Virus record (IMG/VR): IMGVR_UViG_2839610755_000002
Length of the DNA stretch: 64,000 nt
Source of the DNA: a virus
Taxonomy: Duplodnaviria > Heunggongvirae > Uroviricota > Caudoviricetes
Direction: 5' to 3' (one strand)
This document shows positions 3,256-55,524 of the stretch, piece after piece; positions within the stretch are counted from its first letter, which is position 1; every line of letters begins with the position of its first letter. Made by a program: the position numbers and the translations under genes. Below the pieces are notes generated by a model. The model made no database searches. It was given only the letters and a program-made list of their open reading frames with translations, and had not been told where the DNA came from.

Positions 3256-4119
3256 ATGAACAAGCTATCTATGGGGGTGTTTCGCTGTTCAAGTGTCAGC
3301 GAAATATTGAAATACATTAGGGCAATAACATCTCACCGGGCGCCGATTAAATACGGCGTGGAAAAGGTGGAAGGCAAAAGCTATGACCGACTGCGCCGGG
3401 AGGCGAATCAGAAGGCGATAGATTTGCTTAATTCGCTGGTGGACGGCGCGACACTGACAGATGAACAGCGCCAGATCCTGGCTGGGTACACCGGTGAAGG
3501 TGGCATTGGCGGGGCCGTCTCCGAATATTACACACCAAAGCCGATCGCTGAAGGCGTCTGGGAGATCATGAAGCTCTACGGCGCGGACGTAGGTAACACT
3601 CTGGAACCATCGGCGGGAACCGGCGTTTTTAATGAGACAAAACCGGTTGGTACGGTGATGACCGCGACTGAGATCAGCAGTGTTTCCGGTCGTATAAACC
3701 AGTTGTTACACCCGGAAGACAGCGTACAGATTTCCCCGTTCGAACAGCTGGCTATAAGCACGCCTAACGATTCATTCGACCATGTTGTGGGTAACGTTCC
3801 GTTCGGCGGTCGTGATAACACACGCAACATCGATAAGCCTTACGCAGAAGAAACGGACATGGGTTCTTACTTCATGCTCCGCATGCTGGACAAGATAAAG
3901 CCTGGCGGATTCATGTGTGTGATTGTGCCGCCGTCCATTGTTTCAGGTTCAAACATGAAGCGGTTACGCCTGCGCCTATCCCGTAAAGCTGAATTTCTTG
4001 GCGCTCACCGCTTGCCTACCGGTACTTTTGACGCAAACGGGACCAGTACGGTCGTTGATGTGGTGCTGATGCGTAAACATCCGGCAGAGATGGCTGAGAA
4101 AATCCCCCCTGGTGGATGA
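3256..4119 (+). CDS. darB: DarB N-terminal segment (N6-adenine methyltransferase domain), ends at a frameshift
   Basis: MTase motif I-like LEPSAGTGVF and motif IV-like VVGNVPFGG. The ORF stops at 4117-4119 just after a C6 tract while the next frame continues. Confidence 0.75.
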   Translation: MNKLSMGVFRCSSVSEILKYIRAITSHRAPIKYGVEKVEGKSYDRLRREANQKAIDLLNSLVDGATLTDEQRQILAGYTGEGGIGGAVSEYYTPKPIAEGVWEIMKLYGADVGNTLEPSAGTGVFNETKPVGTVMTATEISSVSGRINQLLHPEDSVQISPFEQLAISTPNDSFDHVVGNVPFGGRDNTRNIDKPYAEETDMGSYFMLRMLDKIKPGGFMCVIVPPSIVSGSNMKRLRLRLSRKAEFLGAHRLPTGTFDANGTSTVVDVVLMRKHPAEMAEKIPPGG

Positions 4120-31900: not shown

Positions 31901-32379
31901 GAAAAAAAAGACTCCCGAGTATGACTGTTAAGAGCTGGTGCGAACGCCGCGTTAAGAACGGCAGCATCACAGCCGTCATCAATATAGAGCGCAATTTTTT
32001 TCTCCAGGCGCGCTTTGGCTTCCTGCAACTGCATACCCCGGCACGCACGCGGGATATAATCAGCAATTTGAGCGATAGCTTTTTCGTTCTGTTTAAACAT
32101 GCTTCACCTCGATAGGCTTGATGGTGTCTAACAGCAGTCGACGGCGCGTATTTTCTGCAAAGTGGCGGCGTCCGGTATCTTTGTGGTAAAACTCATTTTT
32201 GCCGACGACCCACATCCGCTCTGTTTGGTGCAGTTTTTTTACCTGCGGCCCGTCTTTGGTGATCACGGTGCCGGTATGGGTTTTTACGATTGTCATGCCA
32301 CTACCTCTTCGAACAGATGAACGAGACAGGCCGATGCTCGTCCACCTGAAAAACTGACGATTTGATGCATACTCACGGT

Positions 32380-49542: not shown

Positions 49543-49618
49543 TGGTGGCCCCTACCGGACTTGAACCGGTGACCGTGCGATTATGAGTCGCCAGCTCTAA
49601 CCACTGAGCTAAAGGGCC
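49543..49618 (-). tRNA. tRNA with CAU anticodon (Ile2/Met-type; ileX-like acceptor stem)
   Basis: Hand-folded cloverleaf: acceptor GGCCCTT/AGGGGCC, anticodon loop CTCATAA, T-loop TTCAAGT, encoded CCA; coordinates approximate. Confidence 0.7.
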
Positions 49619-49645: not shown

Positions 49646-50473
49646 TTATTTCACCGGAACAAACGGAACAGCGGTATTACTGGTCATATACTGCGGTAAT
49701 GTACCGTTCCATTTGTTGATCGCTTCCAAGTCCATAACACCGGGGTTCTGGCGCAGAGCTTCACCACGTAAACGAATGGCATCAGCTTCGGCCTGGGCTT
49801 TTGTGCGAATAGCATCAGCCTGTCCGGCAGCTTCCGCGCGCAGCATGTTGGCCTCTGCTTCACGTTGTTTGACCTCTTGCTCGCGTTGCAGGGTTTTTTG
49901 GTTTGCCGTGACTTTGGCGTTAATACTGTCAATAACTGTTGGCGGGTATTCTGGCTTACCTACATAAGAGAGGCTCATCACCTGAATGCCGATTGGCGTC
50001 ATTTCTTCCTGAATGTCTTTAAGGGCTGCATCAAGCAATTCAGATTTGCCACCGTCGATAAATTTGTCGGTGGTCATTTTGCTGGCTAATCGGTTCAGAG
50101 CATCTGCAACCTTCTGGCGTAGATCGGTATCAGTAATATCATCTACACCTTTGCGATAGGTCTGAAATACCGTTGTGACTTTTGCTGGATCAACCTTGTA
50201 GGCTACGCCGATGTGGTAACCAATGGTTGTTCCGTCGCTCATCTGGAAGCTGAACGGCTCATCGTATGTCTTCATTTGCTTAAAGGTCGGGAAGATATAA
50301 ACTTCAGTATTCAAGCCTGTCCAGTAGCGACCAACGCCAACTACTTCACCGATACCTTTATCATCCCCCAGCTTATTTACTTTGATCCCTACGTTACCTG
50401 GCTCTACCCGATCGCATCCGGTCAGACATAAAGAACCCAAAATAATCGCTGCACTAATCAACGTTTTTTTCAT
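49646..50473 (-). CDS. SPFH/band-7 family lipoprotein (Plp-like)
   Basis: Signal peptide with lipobox LTGC, then a prohibitin-like domain and Ala/Glu-rich coiled coil. Confidence 0.55.
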   Translation of the reverse strand: MKKTLISAAIILGSLCLTGCDRVEPGNVGIKVNKLGDDKGIGEVVGVGRYWTGLNTEVYIFPTFKQMKTYDEPFSFQMSDGTTIGYHIGVAYKVDPAKVTTVFQTYRKGVDDITDTDLRQKVADALNRLASKMTTDKFIDGGKSELLDAALKDIQEEMTPIGIQVMSLSYVGKPEYPPTVIDSINAKVTANQKTLQREQEVKQREAEANMLRAEAAGQADAIRTKAQAEADAIRLRGEALRQNPGVMDLEAINKWNGTLPQYMTSNTAVPFVPVK

Positions 50474-50690
50474 TAATTAATTTCCTGGTTTTTTCACGAA
50501 AAAAGACTACTGCGAAAGCCGGGTAAATGAGCGCGAGAAGGACTCCCAACAATACAAGTATTGTGCTGTTAGATGAGATCATATTTGGCAAAAGCCAAAC
50601 ATACAGAACCAGTGACACAATCAAACAGAGGACGGCATAAATATATAACCGCACCCATAGCGTTCGACATTTGTTCGGATTGTTCTGCAT
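50454..50690 (-). CDS. small membrane protein (Upl-like)
   Basis: 78 aa with two hydrophobic helices, overlapping the plp-like start. Confidence 0.4.
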   Translation of the reverse strand: MQNNPNKCRTLWVRLYIYAVLCLIVSLVLYVWLLPNMISSNSTILVLLGVLLALIYPAFAVVFFREKTRKLINEKNVD

Positions 50691-51563
50691 CCTCTCACTC
50701 CATTATTTAACGAATAAAAAAGCTGCGGTGCCGGGTTCCTCCCGGTGTCCTTTGGCTGGTTATCCACCGTGGACGTGGAAACAAGGAGAAATAATGGACA
50801 GATATAACCATTTCCCCGCGTGCGCTTAGCCGCATTCACCGCAACGGAAAGAGCATTCTTGGTGGACCTGTAGATTGGGATATGAACCCGTTACAGGAGA
50901 ATGCTCTTACCTGTTACGTGCTCCGTTTCGTGGAGCTAACGGCGGGTGATCAGACCGCACCAGACTGGACTTATTTCAGCGTTATGCTCATGCCAGAGAA
51001 TCAAACTGTGATGGTCGGTGCTGAACTCCGACACAGGGTTGTAGCAAGCCCCGCAAAGCGCGCACTACTGTAGTTGCGGCACATCAGCCTGTGCATTCAC
51101 CACAATGTTGAGAACACTGGTTGTCACGCGGCAACGCAACATTTATTCGTAGATTGGGATATGACCCCGTTACGCCAGTGTTCTCAACGTTGTAGTTGTT
51201 ATGCGTATTCTCTTACTAACCGCACACCAATACATTTCCCATCACGTTCATTTGTCTCGAAACGTGAATACTTAAGTTCGCCGTTAATAATCGCTGTTAC
51301 AACCCGTATCCCGTTAAACGCCCACATATTTCGCTCCATTTACACACATTACCAGTCGCCGGTTACGGTTCCGGCCAGGCCTCTTCCTCAACGGGGTGTT
51401 CTCCATACGGACTACCGTTTATTGGTCGTTCCTGCGGTTTATGTTGTGAAGCCAGATGCTTATCTTCTGGTTGCTTCTAAGATCTGCACTTCATCACAAC
51501 GGTAAGAGCACTCGATGCATTTAAGCCAGGCCCCATAAGGGAGAATGCTCTTACCTGTTATGT

Positions 51564-51639
51564 TGGTGCCGATTAACGGGATCGAACCGCTGACCATTCG
51601 CTTACAAAGCGACTGCTCTACCAACTGAGCTAAATCGGC
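51564..51639 (-). tRNA. tRNA-Thr (UGU)
   Basis: Hand-folded: acceptor GCCGATT/AATCGGC, anticodon loop TTTGTAA, T-loop TTCGATC, encoded CCA; coordinates approximate. Confidence 0.8.
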
Positions 51640-51643
51640 AATG

Positions 51644-51730
51644 TGGTGGGGAGTGATGGAGTCGAACCACCCGAGTCGCAATGACAGTAGATTTACAGTC
51701 TACCCCGCTACCCCTACGGACTAACTCCCC
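51644..51730 (-). tRNA. putative class II tRNA, Tyr-like (GUA anticodon, long variable arm)
   Basis: 87 nt: acceptor GGGGAGT/ACTCCCC, anticodon arm GTAGA-CTGTAAA-TCTAC, 15-nt variable arm, T-arm GGTGG-TTCGACT-CCATC, CCA. D-arm pairing is irregular. Confidence 0.45.
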
Positions 51731-51735
51731 TAAAG

Positions 51736-51810
51736 TGGCGATGGTGGGTGGATTCGAACTACCGACCAGTTGGTTAACAGCCAACTGCTCTACCGCTGAG
51801 CTACACCATC
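51736..51810 (-). tRNA. tRNA-Asn (GUU)
   Basis: Hand-folded: acceptor GATGGTG/CACCATC, anticodon arm GTTGG-CTGTTAA-CCAAC, T-loop TTCGAAT, CCA; coordinates approximate. Confidence 0.75.
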
Positions 51811-52273
51811 ACTTGCCGGGTACGTCTCCGGCGAGGGCTTCCACCTCCGTATGCTTTTCGGCGCACCGCGCCCTGGCTGCAATTCGGTAACAGGGGATGC
51901 ATAACCCTGGCTTCCAGCGTGATTAGCGCCTTCAGCATGACGGGATATACCCGTAAATTCGTGGAACTGTACCCAAAGTGCTGTTAAGCACCGCTGTTAC
52001 GCTGAAAAGAAAACGCAACAGGAAAGGACGCTGACCAACAGATGGCCCCTTCTCGTTCATCTGGTTAATCACACCAGCGCCCTTACCTGTTGTGCCTCCC
52101 CGTTCCCTAATACACAGACGGGGACACTCTGCGGTCGATTTTTTGACGGGGGACGACTCATACCCCATGGCATCTGGCTTCTTAGGCCGCTACCATCATC
52201 AGATCATCGTTTGCATTTACTTTAATGGTCAGTTTCTAAACCGCCGCAAAGTCGCTAACCATGACGAAAACCC

Positions 52274-52301
52274 TGAAAAAAACGCCCACCCGAAGATGGG
52301 C
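52274..52301 (-). terminator. intrinsic terminator downstream of dmt (GCCCATC-TTCG-GGTGGGC then T7)
   Basis: 7-bp stem with a UUCG tetraloop and a run of 7 T on the minus strand, about 190 nt after the dmt stop. Confidence 0.6.
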
Positions 52302-52475
52302 AAACTGGACGCTCGTAACGCACTTCGGCGTTGCCACTTAGGCGCATGGTCAACCTGGCAACTCGGTGGTTTGTCTGGGAGGACTAGGCCCAGCCATGCT
52401 TACCGCCGCGCCTGTCGCGGCTAACAGCTAAATCGCTCTATAAATCACGATTCATTGAGGTGATATTACACTAAT

Positions 52476-52492
52476 AAATTTATTAGAGCAAT
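52476..52492. promoter_or_regulatory. C1 operator, perfect consensus match, overlapping the dmt stop codon
   Basis: AAATTTATTAGAGCAAT is the exact reverse complement of ATTGCTCTAATAAATTT; preceded by ACACTAATAAATTT giving a near-palindromic double site. Confidence 0.7.
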
Positions 52493-55400
52493 ATACCCAA
52501 AACGTCATGAGCTACACCTCGAGTGTCCCCCTTACAAGACACAGAACGTCTGGCAAAAAGAGGTTCCACTCTGAAGCCACTGTCATGATAAAGCTCTCTG
52601 ATGTTTGGCGCGCCACTGTTAGTAATGAGAACCTTTGCACCTCGACGATGAGCATCCGTCAACAGAGACACCAGGCGTTTTTGCTCTTCAAACTTAAAGT
52701 CATGACCGGAATAGTTCGTGAATCCCTCTGTATTTGGAAGCGGTTCATACGGCGGATCGCAAAAGATGACATCTCCTTCTCCGGCAGCTTCAATCACCGC
52801 TGCAAAATCACCGCATACAAACTCAGACCGCCCTTCCGCACCGAGGAAGGCTTCCATCTCCTGTAATGGGAAATACGGAGTTTTATACTTCCCATAACCG
52901 ACATTGAACTCACCGGCCTGGTTGTAACGCGTCAATCCGTTAAAACAATGTCGGTTCAGGAACAAAAACGCCGCTGCGCGATGTAAATCATCATAGACTT
53001 GTTTGTTAAACGCATTCCGTACTGCCAGGTATCCTTCCTGTGTGTTGTAGTCCTGGAAGAAACGATGTGCCAGAGTGATAAGTGAATGCGCCTCGCGTTG
53101 CAGAGTCTTGTAAAAGTTAATCAGGTCAGCATTCACATCATTTAGCAGATTTTCCTGGTATCCGGCATTCATGAAGACAGCTCCGCCACCAACGAAAGGT
53201 TCAATCAGGCGCTTCCCTTCTGGCAAATAGCGAAAGATTTGTTCCAGAACACCAAATTTTCCACCAGCCCATTTGAATATGGACCGTTCGAATTCTGCCG
53301 CTGGTTTAACTTTTCGCTCTTTTGTTTCACTTCCTTCTTTCTGCCGACATACGGCCTTAGTAATCCGATCGCCAATCCAGCGCATTACTGGTATTGCCAT
53401 ACTATTGCCGATCGCTTTGTAACGCGGTCCGTCAGCTGCAAGCATTGCGGCCTCTTCTTCGCTTAAATCTGGATAGTGATTGTGCAGATATGCCAGTTCA
53501 TCTGAATTAACTTTTTTACGCTTTTCCGTAGGGATCAACGTATGCCAATCAGGAAAACCTTGCAGCCTTTCACATTCGACAGGGGTAAGACGGCGCATTC
53601 TACCGTCGCCGAGCAATACAATTGGTGCTTCATGGTTACATGTCAAAGTTGGTGCCGAATTATCGGTTTTTATCTCAGCCCCTCCTTGCCCATGTGCCAT
53701 GGCAATTATGTTTGTATCATCGCAAGTTCTGATAGCGATGTTTGAAGTATATCTGGTAGTTTCCTTCCCCTCGCCTCTGCTCGGCGCAATATTCCGGCGC
53801 ACGCCTTCGAACTCAAAAAGTACCGTTGCGGGATCGAGATCTGTTCGAGCACTTGCGACAACAAACACGCGTCGGCGTCGTTGTGCCACTCCGAAGTATT
53901 GGGCATCAAGGATTCTCCAGGCCACTTTTCGCTGCGGTCCATAAATACAACCACACTGCGGCCACTTTGGAACATGGCAACCGGTTTTGCCATCCCACCG
54001 CCAGAACGCGTTGCTTTTTCCTGATTCAGGTCGATCACCTGGTTCAAATGGCACATCTTCTCCAGCCAATCCGGCAAGGAAACATCCGAAGGCGTTATCT
54101 GCCGATGACAAGACTCCTGGGACATTTTCCCAGACGATAACGGCTGGTTTGAGAAATGACTCAGCCCGTTTGTCGTCAATTGCATTTGCAAGCTCCACAT
54201 ACTTTAAAGTTAGCGCGCCACGCTCATCATCAAGCCCACCACGTAATCCCGCGATACTGAATGCCTGACAGTTATGGACCACCGCACCATTGAGGATATA
54301 GGAATGATCACCTTCGACTTCTATGTTGTATACAGTATCTAGGCCTACCGATTTAAACTCTTTGACTGTTCGTAAAAGCATTCCATGAGCCAATCTTGAT
54401 TTACGTGACAATTTCTGCGGGCAGATTGTTACCTGATAATAATTCCGTTGATTTACCACGCGATCCTCGATCACTTTTTTGGGCTCAACTTCAATAAAGC
54501 TGACCGAAGAAACATAACCACAAGTCTGTGACAACCCCGCAACGCCCCAAGCAAGCGCAGAACTAACACTATTAATTCTAAATCCCGCTTTACCACTTGG
54601 TGTCCCATCAGTATCAAGATAGCCTTGTAAAAACACATGACGCAATGGATGCGACATCACCCATGCAGGGATACGCTTAGCATGGCTTAACTCGCCAAAA
54701 TGTTCATTAAGCCAATTGGCATAACACGTATCATTCAAGGTTACTTTGATGCTCCCTCGGATTTCGCTTGCCACGGAAAATATGTTTTCTGGTATGCGGC
54801 AATGAAACTTTCTCAATTTCTGGCAATTTATGCCAAAAACAACCGCCTTCTTAGATTTACCTCTCCATCTCCTAATATATCCATCGCCAACATAAGCGCC
54901 CGCAAGATACATAGCCTGTTCTTCAGACAAGAACCGAGAACAAATATCTGGAAATGCAATATTGAAATTAGTTAGAGCGCACCATTGATATCCCGGCATA
55001 TCACATGCTGCTCGCCATTCCGGTTCAGACAACAACTCTCTCTTAAAATATGTGCCATTTTTCCGGGTGTTTTGGGCTTTCCACCGAACAGCCAGGAAGG
55101 GATGGTCATTGGTTGTTCTTATACCTAAAGGCTGCCCAACGGCATTAAGTAACCCCGTATTAGCTATTTTTGAACCAACTCTTTTTACTTGTTGTAACCG
55201 CCCGAGATGACTGACTACGTAATCACCAGGGCAAACATTTTCTATTGGTTTATAGCCATTTTTACAAAGAACCATATGCCCCGCGGTAAAACATGGTGTT
55301 CCCCCGACGAGCACGTCAGGGGATTCGATTTCCCCAGCCAAGACTTTTTTGGCAAGTTTTTTCATGTCGCCAAGGTTGGCAACATGGGGCCAGCGGAGCG

Positions 55401-55524
55401 CAAGAACGGCCGATGGAAAAGGCTCGATTTCAGCAAACCACGCCGGACGCATACCCAACGGTTCCCAGGCAATACTCGCGGCTTCAATTCCACTGCAAAC
55501 AGATCCATAGCACAGCTCTTTCAC
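52483..55524 (-). CDS. dmt: Dmt bifunctional DNA methyltransferase (N-terminal C5-cytosine MTase interrupted by an intein; C-terminal Dam-like N6-adenine MTase)
   Basis: C5 motifs I ([11 protein letters not shown]), IV (GGTP|CQAFSIAG, split by the intein) and VI (VIVWENVPG); Dam-like KWAGGK and DPPY in the C-terminal half. Confidence 0.8.
54271..55293 (-). other. intein (341 aa) with LAGLIDADG homing-endonuclease domain inside dmt
   Basis: Starts with Cys (CFTAGHMVL), has TTNDHPF (block B-like), [12 protein letters not shown] and [11 protein letters not shown], ends ...NGAVVHN followed by Cys; excision restores [12 protein letters not shown]. Confidence 0.7.

Follow-up and report, generated by a model that had tools for sequence, protein, structure and literature searches.

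A repeat-rich spacer beside the tRNA array holds tandem RNA cassettes

The 64,000-nucleotide (nt) stretch analysed here (IMG/VR record IMGVR_UViG_2839610755_000002; hereafter the window) is a P1-like (Punavirus) plasmid-prophage. Between an array of tRNA genes and a gene for a membrane protein of 78 amino acids (aa) (50454-50690, start codon at 50690), both on the minus strand, lies a spacer that an earlier note on this DNA had described as repeat-rich and non-coding, and had read as degenerate tRNA fragments, att-site remnants of an integrase-mediated event or RNA processing signals. When analysing this spacer, we found that it consists of tandem non-coding RNA cassettes on the tRNA strand, which belong to a conserved, large and unannotated family and whose second domain is related to STnc100/PasD. 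There are three cassettes (C, B and A, in 5′ to 3′ order on the minus strand, the order used for the anatomy throughout), and a fourth copy of their first hairpin lies upstream of tRNA-Asn. Each cassette begins with H1, a hairpin of about 19 base pairs (bp) with a variable apical loop, and continues with D2, a multi-stem domain. In D2, a closing stem of 7-9 bp leads through a GAAU joint into a small 5-bp hairpin; after this come a variable core and, right against the closing strand, a terminal hairpin. The features are listed below, where R1 is a covariance model built from a seed alignment (A2) of 21 well-registered sequences with a hand-specified structure, and z is the fold z-score.

52014..52094, minus strand: H1-D, with arms CACAACAGGUAAGGGCGCUG and CAGCGUCCUUUCCUGUUGCG and no D2 after it (R1 match at 51998-52097, 27.4 bits, E 0.0056)
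51492..51563, minus strand: H1-C, an inverted repeat that begins right after the CCA end of tRNA-Thr and holds one copy of a 21-nt repeat in its 5′ arm (z -4.83; R1 match at 51476-51565, 44.0 bits)
51443..51500, minus strand: D2C, a short D2 of a kind found in many loci, assigned by its fold, with closing stem GUUGUGA / UCACAAC and strand GUUGUGAUG common with the H1-C foot
51358..51442, minus strand: inter-cassette spacer, conserved in phage D6 and viral loci, ending in the small hairpin GGCCGGAACCGUAACCGGC (51358-51376)
51197..51357, minus strand: lineage-specific insertion of 161 nt that separates H1-B from the small hairpin, missing from D6
51100..51196, minus strand: H1-B, with wholly different yet complementary arms and, in its loop, the second copy of a 25-nt T-arm-like segment (51149-51173) (R1 match at 51077-51197, 81.6 bits)
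51005..51108, minus strand: D2B, complete, with closing stem AUUGUGGUG/CAUCACAGU (fold; a row of alignment A4, described below)
50920..51004, minus strand: pre-H1 module ending in the hairpin GCUCCACGAAACGGAGC (50920-50936), with homologous upstream contexts in lambdoid loci
50839..50919, minus strand: H1-A, made of inverted and direct repeats, with the first T-arm-like segment (50870-50894) and a ...GGUCCACCA string in its loop and the other copy of the 21-nt repeat in its 5′ arm (z -4.14; R1 match at 50820-50921, 60.4 bits)
50722-50847, minus strand: D2A, STnc100-like, with closing stem GUUGCGGUG/CACCGCAGC (Rfam STnc100 match; fold)
50711-50721, minus strand: a U-tract (UUUUUU) after D2A, shortly before the ribosome-binding site that serves the 78-aa gene

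The repeats that the earlier note had listed are all real, and each was found no more than 3 nt from the position it had given. The 21-mer GGAGAATGCTCTTACCTGTTA lies at 50896-50916 and 51540-51560, its second copy ending 3 nt short of the tRNA-Thr 3′ end (51564); the 25-nt repeat GTAGATTGGGATATGA(A/C)CCCGTTAC lies at 50870-50894 and 51149-51173 with 96% identity; the inverted pair has its arms at 51099-51120 and 51175-51196 (22 nt, 91% complementary); and on the minus strand the string ...GGGTTCATATCCCAATCTACAGGTCCACCA can be read at about 50861-50890. Chance does not account for these repeats: for a degenerate 21-nt arm pattern, 0.06 occurrences would be expected in the window and three were counted (0 of 100 shuffles). 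Two further inverted repeats, not listed at that time (50846-50859/50898-50911 and 51501-51513/51543-55), make each repeat group a hairpin, and the spacer is therefore made of three paralogous modules and not of scattered repeats: the 21-mer forms the 5′ arm in both H1-A and H1-C, the 25-mer forms a sub-hairpin common to the loops of H1-A and H1-B, and the inverted pair is H1-B itself. The three hairpins have fold z-scores of -4.1 to -6.4.

H1-B has other arms (GUUGAGAACACUGG/CCAGUGUUCUCAAC) than H1-A and H1-C (GGUAAGAGCA/UGCUCUUWCC), each pair being complementary, and the H1-C arms show compensatory changes in D6 and P1 (GGUAAGGGUA/UACCCUUACC). The calculated folding energies are -50.2 kcal/mol for H1-B (z -6.40) and -56.9 kcal/mol for H1-D (z -4.65). 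Within D2B, the small hairpin GCACA-GGCUGA-UGUGC is followed by the variable core and by a 3′ hairpin, GUCGG-AGUUCAGCA-CCGAC, which abuts the closing strand. A small hairpin of the GGCCGGAACCGUAACCGGC type comes before H1 in many loci, and in D6 it directly adjoins the 5′ arm of H1-B. The 161-nt insertion that separates them in the window contains a 46-aa open reading frame (ORF; 51199..51339, minus strand) matching phrog_8025 (E 9e-25), and may be a real small gene or a further RNA module. Antisense targets of the H1 loops within the window did not rise above chance, amounting to chance-level 10-mers and one 13-mer; the latter is an exact 13-nt complement between the H1-D loop (52048-52066) and 32314-32326, for which about 0.1 is expected per loop, and is possibly a chance match.

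Covariation supports both H1 and D2

Both H1 and D2 are backed by covariation. The seed A2 already contains 13 pairs with changes on both sides, a number reached in 0 of 500 shuffles. Across the H1 alignment of 118 distinct sequences, 91.5% of the cells were paired, a percentage inflated by the fitting of this alignment to R1, compared with 71.2% in shuffles and 27-55% in slid controls; 437 cells carried double changes against 108 in shuffles, and compensatory changes were seen at 20 of 20 pairs. In none of 500 shuffles was the observed paired percentage, number of double-change cells or covariation score reached. The slid and shuffle controls, together with the separate energy test given below, argue that the fitting is not the whole cause of the H1 pairing. 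The outer helix of H1 has a median length of 19 bp, and falls within 16-21 bp in 45 of 55 cases. RNAalifold predicted no pairs on a mixed MAFFT alignment of H1 (A1), because arm classes of differing bulge geometry were out of register in it.

For the D2 skeleton, a plain MAFFT alignment (A4) gave 94.1% of cells paired against 85.2% in shuffles, and 50 double-change cells against 12.8 (0 of 500 shuffles). The closing stem was also assessed from an independent anchor, and here the nine bases that follow the 3′ hairpin form on average 8.08 of 9 pairs with the central strand, compared with 7.03 when partners are permuted.

The commonest H1 3′ arm, which is that of the majority viral class and of positions 50839-50859 in the window, contains UGCUCUUU, and some other classes contain CGCUCUUUUUGA. 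This motif resembles the boxA antitermination motif (rrn UGCUCUUUAACAA, lambda CGCUCUUA). A boxA identity of the UGCUCUUU arm was not adopted, as the motif is missing from many covarying arm classes; the likeness may be a coincidence or a feature of one lineage.

The H1 and D2 architecture recurs in hundreds of phages and prophages

The composite of H1 and D2 is present in hundreds of phage and prophage loci, among them P1-like, lambdoid, and Beta- and Gammaproteobacterial ones, where the stems show no sequence kinship and their pairing is kept. Scanning viral contigs with the arm pattern gave at least 120 loci, and among the matches listed there were about 85 unrelated loops of 33-226 nt, enclosed by conserved arms, and highly diverse hairpin flanks, such as tRNA 3′ ends, terminators, small covarying hairpins or another cassette. 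The hairpin always runs on into GGUGAAU, after which come a small hairpin, the variable core, a further hairpin (e.g., GCCGG-AGAUCAGCA-CCGGC) and CACCACAAC; this stretch is D2. A second anchor, placed in the small hairpin of D2 and chosen to avoid the bias of the arm pattern, yielded at least 120 further contigs. Among the matches listed for this D2-anchored sample, the long hairpin upstream was better than every shuffle in 106 of 149 distinct instances; the mean duplex energy in this sample was -25.2 kcal/mol as opposed to -17.5 kcal/mol for shuffled sequences, and the arms were very diverse.

R1 gave 126 matches in 938 kb, and on the minus strand of the window none besides the four in the feature list. 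In 628 of 5,426 complete E. coli genomes we found the 41-nt stretch running from the H1 3′ arm into the start of D2, and no annotated feature lay beneath any of the matches listed. Among species-representative genomes, strong R1 matches were obtained in many Enterobacterales, with clear ones elsewhere in the Beta- and Gammaproteobacteria (Pandoraea, Comamonas, Thauera, Marinobacterium and Chromohalobacter); in this collection the raw pattern would give a few tens of chance hits, and therefore only R1-confirmed loci were counted. Three loci (L255, L254 and L267) score 79-89 bits with R1 and have arms like those of Enterobacterales on contigs labelled as a Geobacteraceae metagenome-assembled genome (MAG), Martelella alba and an Acidobacteriota MAG; these labels may reflect contamination or mis-binning instead of the true hosts.

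In lambdoid contigs, the cassette occupies two positions. It lies either between Q or tR′ and the lysis genes, often together with tRNAs, or between the terminase and portal genes, where it forms the 5′ part of a small accessory unit in opposite orientation. Conserved sequence extends beyond the cassette in lambdoid loci (L016, L080, L007 and L066 are examples; also 6205-6290 of L027): D2 is followed by more conserved modules, such as CMAAUCACG-UAGCCAG-CGUGGUA..., ahead of a terminator, and a conserved module of some 80 nt lies upstream of H1. Given these conserved flanking modules, the functional unit may be about 300 nt or longer. The module upstream of tRNA-Asn in the window sits upstream of an H1 at another locus.

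Deletion variants were also observed among P1-like elements, in which loop A is joined to the H1-B arm via the 25-nt repeat, or H1-A to tRNA-Thr via the 21-nt repeat (L035 and L115; L049-type), so that the number of cassettes ranges from one to three. General homologous recombination is enough to explain such repeat-driven fusions.

Competing helices on the tRNA strand suggest a processing model

Two pairing partners are available to the central strand between H1 and D2 (X′, GUUGYGGUG): the 5′ foot of H1 (X, e.g., CCACAAC) and the 3′ end of D2, where X occurs again (CACCACAAC). Where X′ varies (GUGUUGGUG, GUGAUGGUG, UUGUUAGUG), both partners change too, which amounts to a three-way covariation of foot, central strand and 3′ closing strand. 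Since the two helices overlap by about 6 bases, both cannot be complete at once. In the minimum-energy fold of the full-length region D2A is closed and the foot of H1-A is lost, while the foot forms when H1-A is folded alone.

The pairs of H1 include 178 G·U against 26 A·C, and canonical T-arm motifs were found in the sense orientation in 6 of 88 unique H1 loops, compared with 1 in antisense and 0.015 in shuffles. Given this G·U excess and the bias of the T-arms towards the sense strand, the selected structure is that of RNA from the tRNA (minus) strand. No sigma-70-like promoter was detected on either strand in 50400-52600, and the cassettes are probably transcribed together with the tRNAs from the C1-controlled ban promoter region.

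Taken together, the best explanation of the whole locus, to which we assign a probability of roughly 0.6, is an array of cassettes in which H1 is a processing or insulating hairpin and D2 a small RNA (sRNA). H1 has the form of an RNase III substrate as judged by its predicted fold, with about two turns of mostly unbroken double-stranded RNA whose length is kept independently of sequence, and it may thus act as a double-strand-specific (RNase III-type) hairpin separating the upstream tRNA or mRNA from D2. Once the H1 foot is cut or opened, X′ would be free to close D2 into a stable sRNA-like molecule, and D2 would in this way be released from the transcript of the tRNA/ban operon; for cassette A, the released molecule would end in the U-tract that immediately precedes the next gene. 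Specificity would reside in the variable loop and core. Among the choices that the earlier note had left standing, RNA processing signals come closest to the reading that the evidence favours, and neither degenerate fragments nor att remnants fit it.

Several points weigh against this explanation, in addition to the fitting of the H1 alignment already mentioned. D2B is no more stable than shuffled sequence (z 0.07), D2A scores below the gathering score of the STnc100 family (RF02076; 38 vs 47 bits), and D2B and D2C have no Rfam match when the window is scanned at E<=10. STnc100 of 933W and PasD2 of E2348/69 share the D2 fold and have no H1 upstream, PasD2 coming instead after promoter-like sequence. 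Between the ban promoter region and the tRNAs there is a terminator-like site (52283-52302), so that co-transcription needs read-through. The plus-strand ORF Upl, discussed below, matches phrog_14500 and phrog_7444, although PHROGs are built from annotated ORFs. Finally, the processing role of H1 and the sRNA role of D2A to D2C at this locus are roles that we infer.

On a broader and more tentative level, we speculate that H1 and D2 could form an undescribed modular RNA system of phages across Proteobacteria, in which a hairpin of constrained length, with a hypervariable and sometimes tRNA-elbow-like apical domain, has one strand in common with an STnc100-like domain, the two helices excluding each other and covarying independently. 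The pair would be a conformational switch triggered by processing that releases programmable regulatory RNAs, the variable loop and core would set targets as C4/CI loops do, and the units would be exchanged alongside tRNA genes. The two competing helices and the hypervariable modules could explain both the excision of STnc100/PasD-like sRNAs from long phage transcripts and their diversification.

Alternative explanations

Two other readings of the same structures, a cis-acting riboregulator and a DNA exchange element, both rank below RNA processing. The first overlaps with the explanation favoured above and, though unlikely, is the stronger of the two. As an attenuator or antiterminator, the cassette would switch between the mutually exclusive H1 foot and D2 closing stem, with D2 closed before the U-tract giving termination, and an H1 foot that holds the shared strand giving read-through to accessory genes. 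This would fit the roughly 6 nt common to both helices, both of which covary, as well as the UUUUUU after D2A directly before the 78-aa gene and the many loci in which a cassette lies immediately ahead of lysis or accessory genes or right behind a terminator. However, in most family members D2 is not followed by a U-tract but continues as a rule with CMAAUCAC... (P1 has CACCGCAACCUUAUU), and cassettes are also found one behind another or immediately ahead of tRNAs, positions that offer no gene for regulation; nor is any ligand or sensor evident.

A second reading, which we consider improbable, is that the hairpins act as DNA, being attC-like sites or homologous linkers for recombination and cassette exchange that shuffle tRNA and accessory genes, and recognized as cruciform or single-stranded DNA. 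In its favour, the sequences flanking the hairpin differ among loci (tRNA 3′ ends, terminators, small hairpins or another cassette), tRNA genes and cassettes fill the same slots in different phages, the H1 5′ foot and the D2 3′ end are direct repeats, and natural deletions join cassettes exactly at the 25-nt and 21-nt repeats. These deletions, however, need only general homologous recombination, and no dedicated recombinase is linked to the cassettes in the contexts examined. In addition, a DNA hairpin, read on either strand, would not be expected to show G·U in 7:1 excess over A·C, the T-arm motifs are strand-specific, and the D2 fold is that of expressed sRNAs. Retron, CRISPR-repeat, miniature inverted-repeat transposable element (MITE), integron-attC and YrlA readings were dropped for want of a model match or of a linked reverse transcriptase, transposase or integrase, or because of the strand asymmetry of G·U.

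Less probable still is that the annotation of P1 is correct, so that Upl (63 aa) and the putative lipoprotein Plp are encoded on the plus strand, with the repeats being incidental. The feature concerned is the following.

50882..51505, plus strand: ORFs homologous to P1 upl and plp (P1 annotation)

The earlier note had given the name upl to the gene at 50454-50690, which is not P1 upl. The homologues of upl and plp are the plus-strand ORFs 50882..51073 and 51074..51505, which it had regarded as spurious, and by conservation and substitution tests they probably are: the spacer is non-coding in practice. On the side of the annotation, the P1 record names both genes and gives them predicted promoters, Upl has the PHROG matches mentioned above, the upl ORF is intact in the closest P1 group, and its unique substitutions show a mild third-position excess (16/24/30 by codon position). 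Yet intact upl is limited to that group. In phage vB_EcoM-Ro157c2YLVW a deletion of 13 nt takes away the upl start codon, which is changed in L139 and L213, and in at least five loci the N-terminal half of upl is replaced by unrelated sequence, which in several of them contains stop codons. Full-length homology to plp was found in 2 of 43 loci, the others having only nt 285-432 in common. The codon-position counts for plp are 9/10/11, the ratios of synonymous to non-synonymous changes are 25:45 (upl) and 9:21 (plp), and no signal of purifying selection, tested as a third-position or synonymous excess, was obtained for either ORF. Neither has a Pfam match, no promoter-like site was found in the region, and the P7 record has no coding sequence annotated in this interval. 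Conservation tracks the RNA modules and not the ORFs; pieces of ‘Upl’ recur in lambdoid loci with no continuity of the ORF because these pieces are the H1 arm and the pre-H1 hairpin. We conclude that the two ORFs are probably antisense artefacts of the RNA cassettes. It follows that upl and plp in the P1 reference record probably are artefacts antisense to structured RNAs, and that about 0.9 kb of the ban/tRNA operon would then have to be re-annotated, both in P1 and in the many P1-like plasmid records with a match to this spacer.

The tRNA flavour that the earlier note had sensed is genuine, in that cassettes lie in tRNA arrays on the tRNA strand and swap with tRNA genes in relatives (tRNA-Ser in P7 and D6). 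Neither ARAGORN nor the Rfam tRNA model detected a tRNA or pseudo-tRNA in 50711-51563, reporting only the four true tRNAs of the region. The T-arm-like loops of the window form a GGG-UUCAUAU-CCC or GGGG-UCAUAU-CCC hairpin with a 3-bp G/C stem, compared with a 5-bp stem and loop UUCRANY in a canonical T-arm. A 45-nt segment with this T-arm-like loop had 973 matches in 5,426 E. coli genomes, of which 957 were on plasmid records; among the matches listed, these were plasmids of about 90-105 kb with no tRNA annotated beneath. No integrase gene is present among the ORFs within 49.5-53 kb. As side observations, the D2 core of L223 (about 3949-4060) contains a canonical D-arm (UAGCUCAGUUGGUAGAGC) and a T-arm, and at several loci (among L200, L053, L064, L092, L118 and L123) the terminal hairpin of D2 is a true T-arm and its first hairpin the D-arm-like GCUCAAUGGCGAGC.

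Scarcely credible, therefore, is an origin of the modules as degenerate tRNA fragments or as att scars of integrase events beside the tRNA cluster, for although they adjoin tRNA genes, hold a T-arm-like hairpin and a CCACCA string in the H1-A loop, and in other family members include canonical T-arms or even a D-arm with a T-arm inside the variable regions, the spacer has no tRNA or pseudo-tRNA, the T-arm-like segment matches no E. coli tRNA gene and lies almost always on plasmid records, no integrase gene is seen among the neighbouring ORFs, and the modules, far from decaying, are structured units that are conserved and strongly covary in hundreds of phages.

The tRNA array and neighbouring genes

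The tRNA genes identified around the cassettes, all by ARAGORN and the Rfam tRNA model, are given below.

51564..51810, minus strand: tRNA array (Asn, Tyr, Thr), in the same orientation as the cassettes (Rfam tRNA model 41.9-69.9 bits)
51736-51810, minus strand: tRNA-Asn(GTT)
51644-51730, minus strand: tRNA-Tyr(GTA), 87 nt, between tRNA-Asn and tRNA-Thr
51564-51639, minus strand: tRNA-Thr(TGT)
49543-49618, minus strand: tRNA-Ile(CAU)

Two E. coli plasmids share the 881 bases of 50690-51570 with 100% identity, and vB_EcoM-Ro157c2YLVW shares them with 98.5%; P1, P7 and D6 share this stretch only in part, the P1 match to the spacer falling into two pieces with 72% coverage. At this place P1 has tRNA-Asn and tRNA-Thr only, and tRNA-Tyr(GTA) is present in Ro157c2YLVW and missing from P1, P7 and D6. 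P7 and D6 have a tRNA-Ser(UGA) inside the spacer with an H1 directly after it. These differences indicate that the tRNA content of P1-like phages varies in a cassette-like manner. In the annotated records of P1 and P7, the tRNAs lie downstream of the C1-controlled ban operator, which in the P7 record is stated to control the tRNA genes.

The ORFs within 49.5-53 kb include an SPFH lipoprotein, the 78-aa membrane protein and Dmt. At 49646-50690 (minus strand), tciA-tciB-tciC of P1 (TerB-like) are replaced by the 78-aa membrane protein (phrog_1130) and a 275-aa SPFH/Band-7 lipoprotein, and the same pair of genes is found downstream of two cassettes at the viral locus L036. The ORF of the Dmt methyltransferase (52483-55524, minus strand; 1013 aa) has Hint, intein-splicing and LAGLIDADG homing-endonuclease domains at about aa 77-418, a block that sits within the C5-methylase part, and it looks like an intein-bearing Dmt. 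Upstream of the tRNA array, 52182-52312 (minus strand), annotated in P1 as a ‘dicF-like region’, contains the terminator-like hairpin 52283-52302 and gave weak Rfam hits to the permuted and beta tmRNA models (24.1 and 11.6 bits).

Comparison with known RNA systems

The closest known relatives of D2 are the STnc100/PasD sRNAs. In Rfam, D2A matches STnc100 (RF02076) at 50724-50843 (38.0 bits, E 5e-6, model positions 31-147 of 206), and the D2 homologue of D6 scores 39.6 bits. Apart from tRNAs, such sub-threshold STnc100 matches were the only ones in our Rfam scans (the window at E<=10, D6, 13 lambdoid loci at gathering thresholds, and L027 at E<=10), and neither H1 nor the composite of H1 and D2 is covered by Rfam 15. 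Hits to Rfam microRNA families were rejected as reflecting the long hairpin only, and YrlA and tmRNA-like hits because they are weak or coincide with true tRNAs. The composite was not described in any paper that our literature searches brought up. STnc100, a prophage sRNA present in multiple copies, has been detected in enterohaemorrhagic E. coli (EHEC) (PMC5331693, PMC12370729) and has been linked structurally to PasD (preprint, bioRxiv 10.64898/2026.05.13.724894), which is Hfq-associated in enteropathogenic E. coli (EPEC) (PMC8550237); the expression and Hfq data concern EHEC and EPEC copies of STnc100/PasD only (PMC5331693, PMC8550237). STnc100, PasD1 and PasD2 of Salmonella, EHEC and EPEC are located like the cassettes, in phages or prophages near Q, tRNAs and accessory genes (bioRxiv 10.64898/2026.05.13.724894). 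Both groups follow one fold plan: the closing stem (7-9 bp) begins ..UGGUGAAU, the 5-bp hairpin has a loop of 6 nt, and beyond a variable core the terminal hairpin sits against the 3′ closing strand. The D2s of the window differ from PasD2 in that each is preceded by H1 with no promoter-like site, D2 being presumably internal to a longer transcript and having a strand in common with the upstream hairpin. Unlike STnc100, the lambdoid GCGCAGGCUGAUGCGC type, D2B and D2C have no Rfam match even at E<=10. Given that the canonical STnc100 and PasD2 loci examined have no H1 upstream, the composite is not simply the STnc100/PasD family. An identity of the modules with PasA, PasC or PasD was likewise rejected, since the partial published sequences and the E2348/69 locus show PasD2 with the D2 fold and no H1, and PasA is unrelated.

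H1 can be compared with RNase III processing hairpins, such as R1-R5 of T7 (not to be confused with our model R1), the N-leader and sib of lambda, and the processing stems of rRNA operons. Like them, it is a helix of about 20 bp, free in sequence and constrained in length, often with one internal irregularity, at the boundaries of functional RNAs (tRNA, H1, D2, mRNA). Its large and hypervariable apical domains, which sometimes hold a T-arm, set this putative substrate apart from them, as does the competition of its foot with a downstream helix, a trait that is not known from those sites.

C4 antisense RNA of P1 and P7 and CI RNA of P4 (RF01695) are processed by RNase P, and the C4 loops, which differ between related phages, set its specificity. 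They resemble the cassette in being phage non-coding RNAs with a long closing stem around small apical hairpins, and C4 thus provides a precedent in P1 itself for a non-coding RNA processed by a tRNA enzyme. Unlike C4, the region has no RF01695 match.

The stable, tRNA-like species 1 and 2 RNAs from the tRNA cluster of T4, the bacterial Y-RNA-like YrlA, and GOLLD and ROOL, which are large ornate phage RNAs next to tRNAs, are structured RNAs other than tRNAs. They share with the cassettes their place within or beside phage tRNA arrays and, in some members, T-arm or elbow modules. The T-arm-like segment of the window, however, is non-canonical (loop UUCAUAU), and the cassettes themselves give no Rfam match to GOLLD, ROOL or YrlA, with YrlA hits confined to true tRNAs.

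What is new relative to these systems is the covarying H1 module and the competing-helix architecture added to the STnc100/PasD superfamily; this is a solid RNA motif and a correction of annotation, not yet a new mechanism, and its biochemical role is one that we infer. It defines a large family of structured RNAs with strong covariation that is absent from Rfam 15 and extends to prophages well beyond Enterobacterales, and it connects the poorly understood STnc100/PasD sRNAs of pathogenic E. coli with the tRNA arrays of phages.

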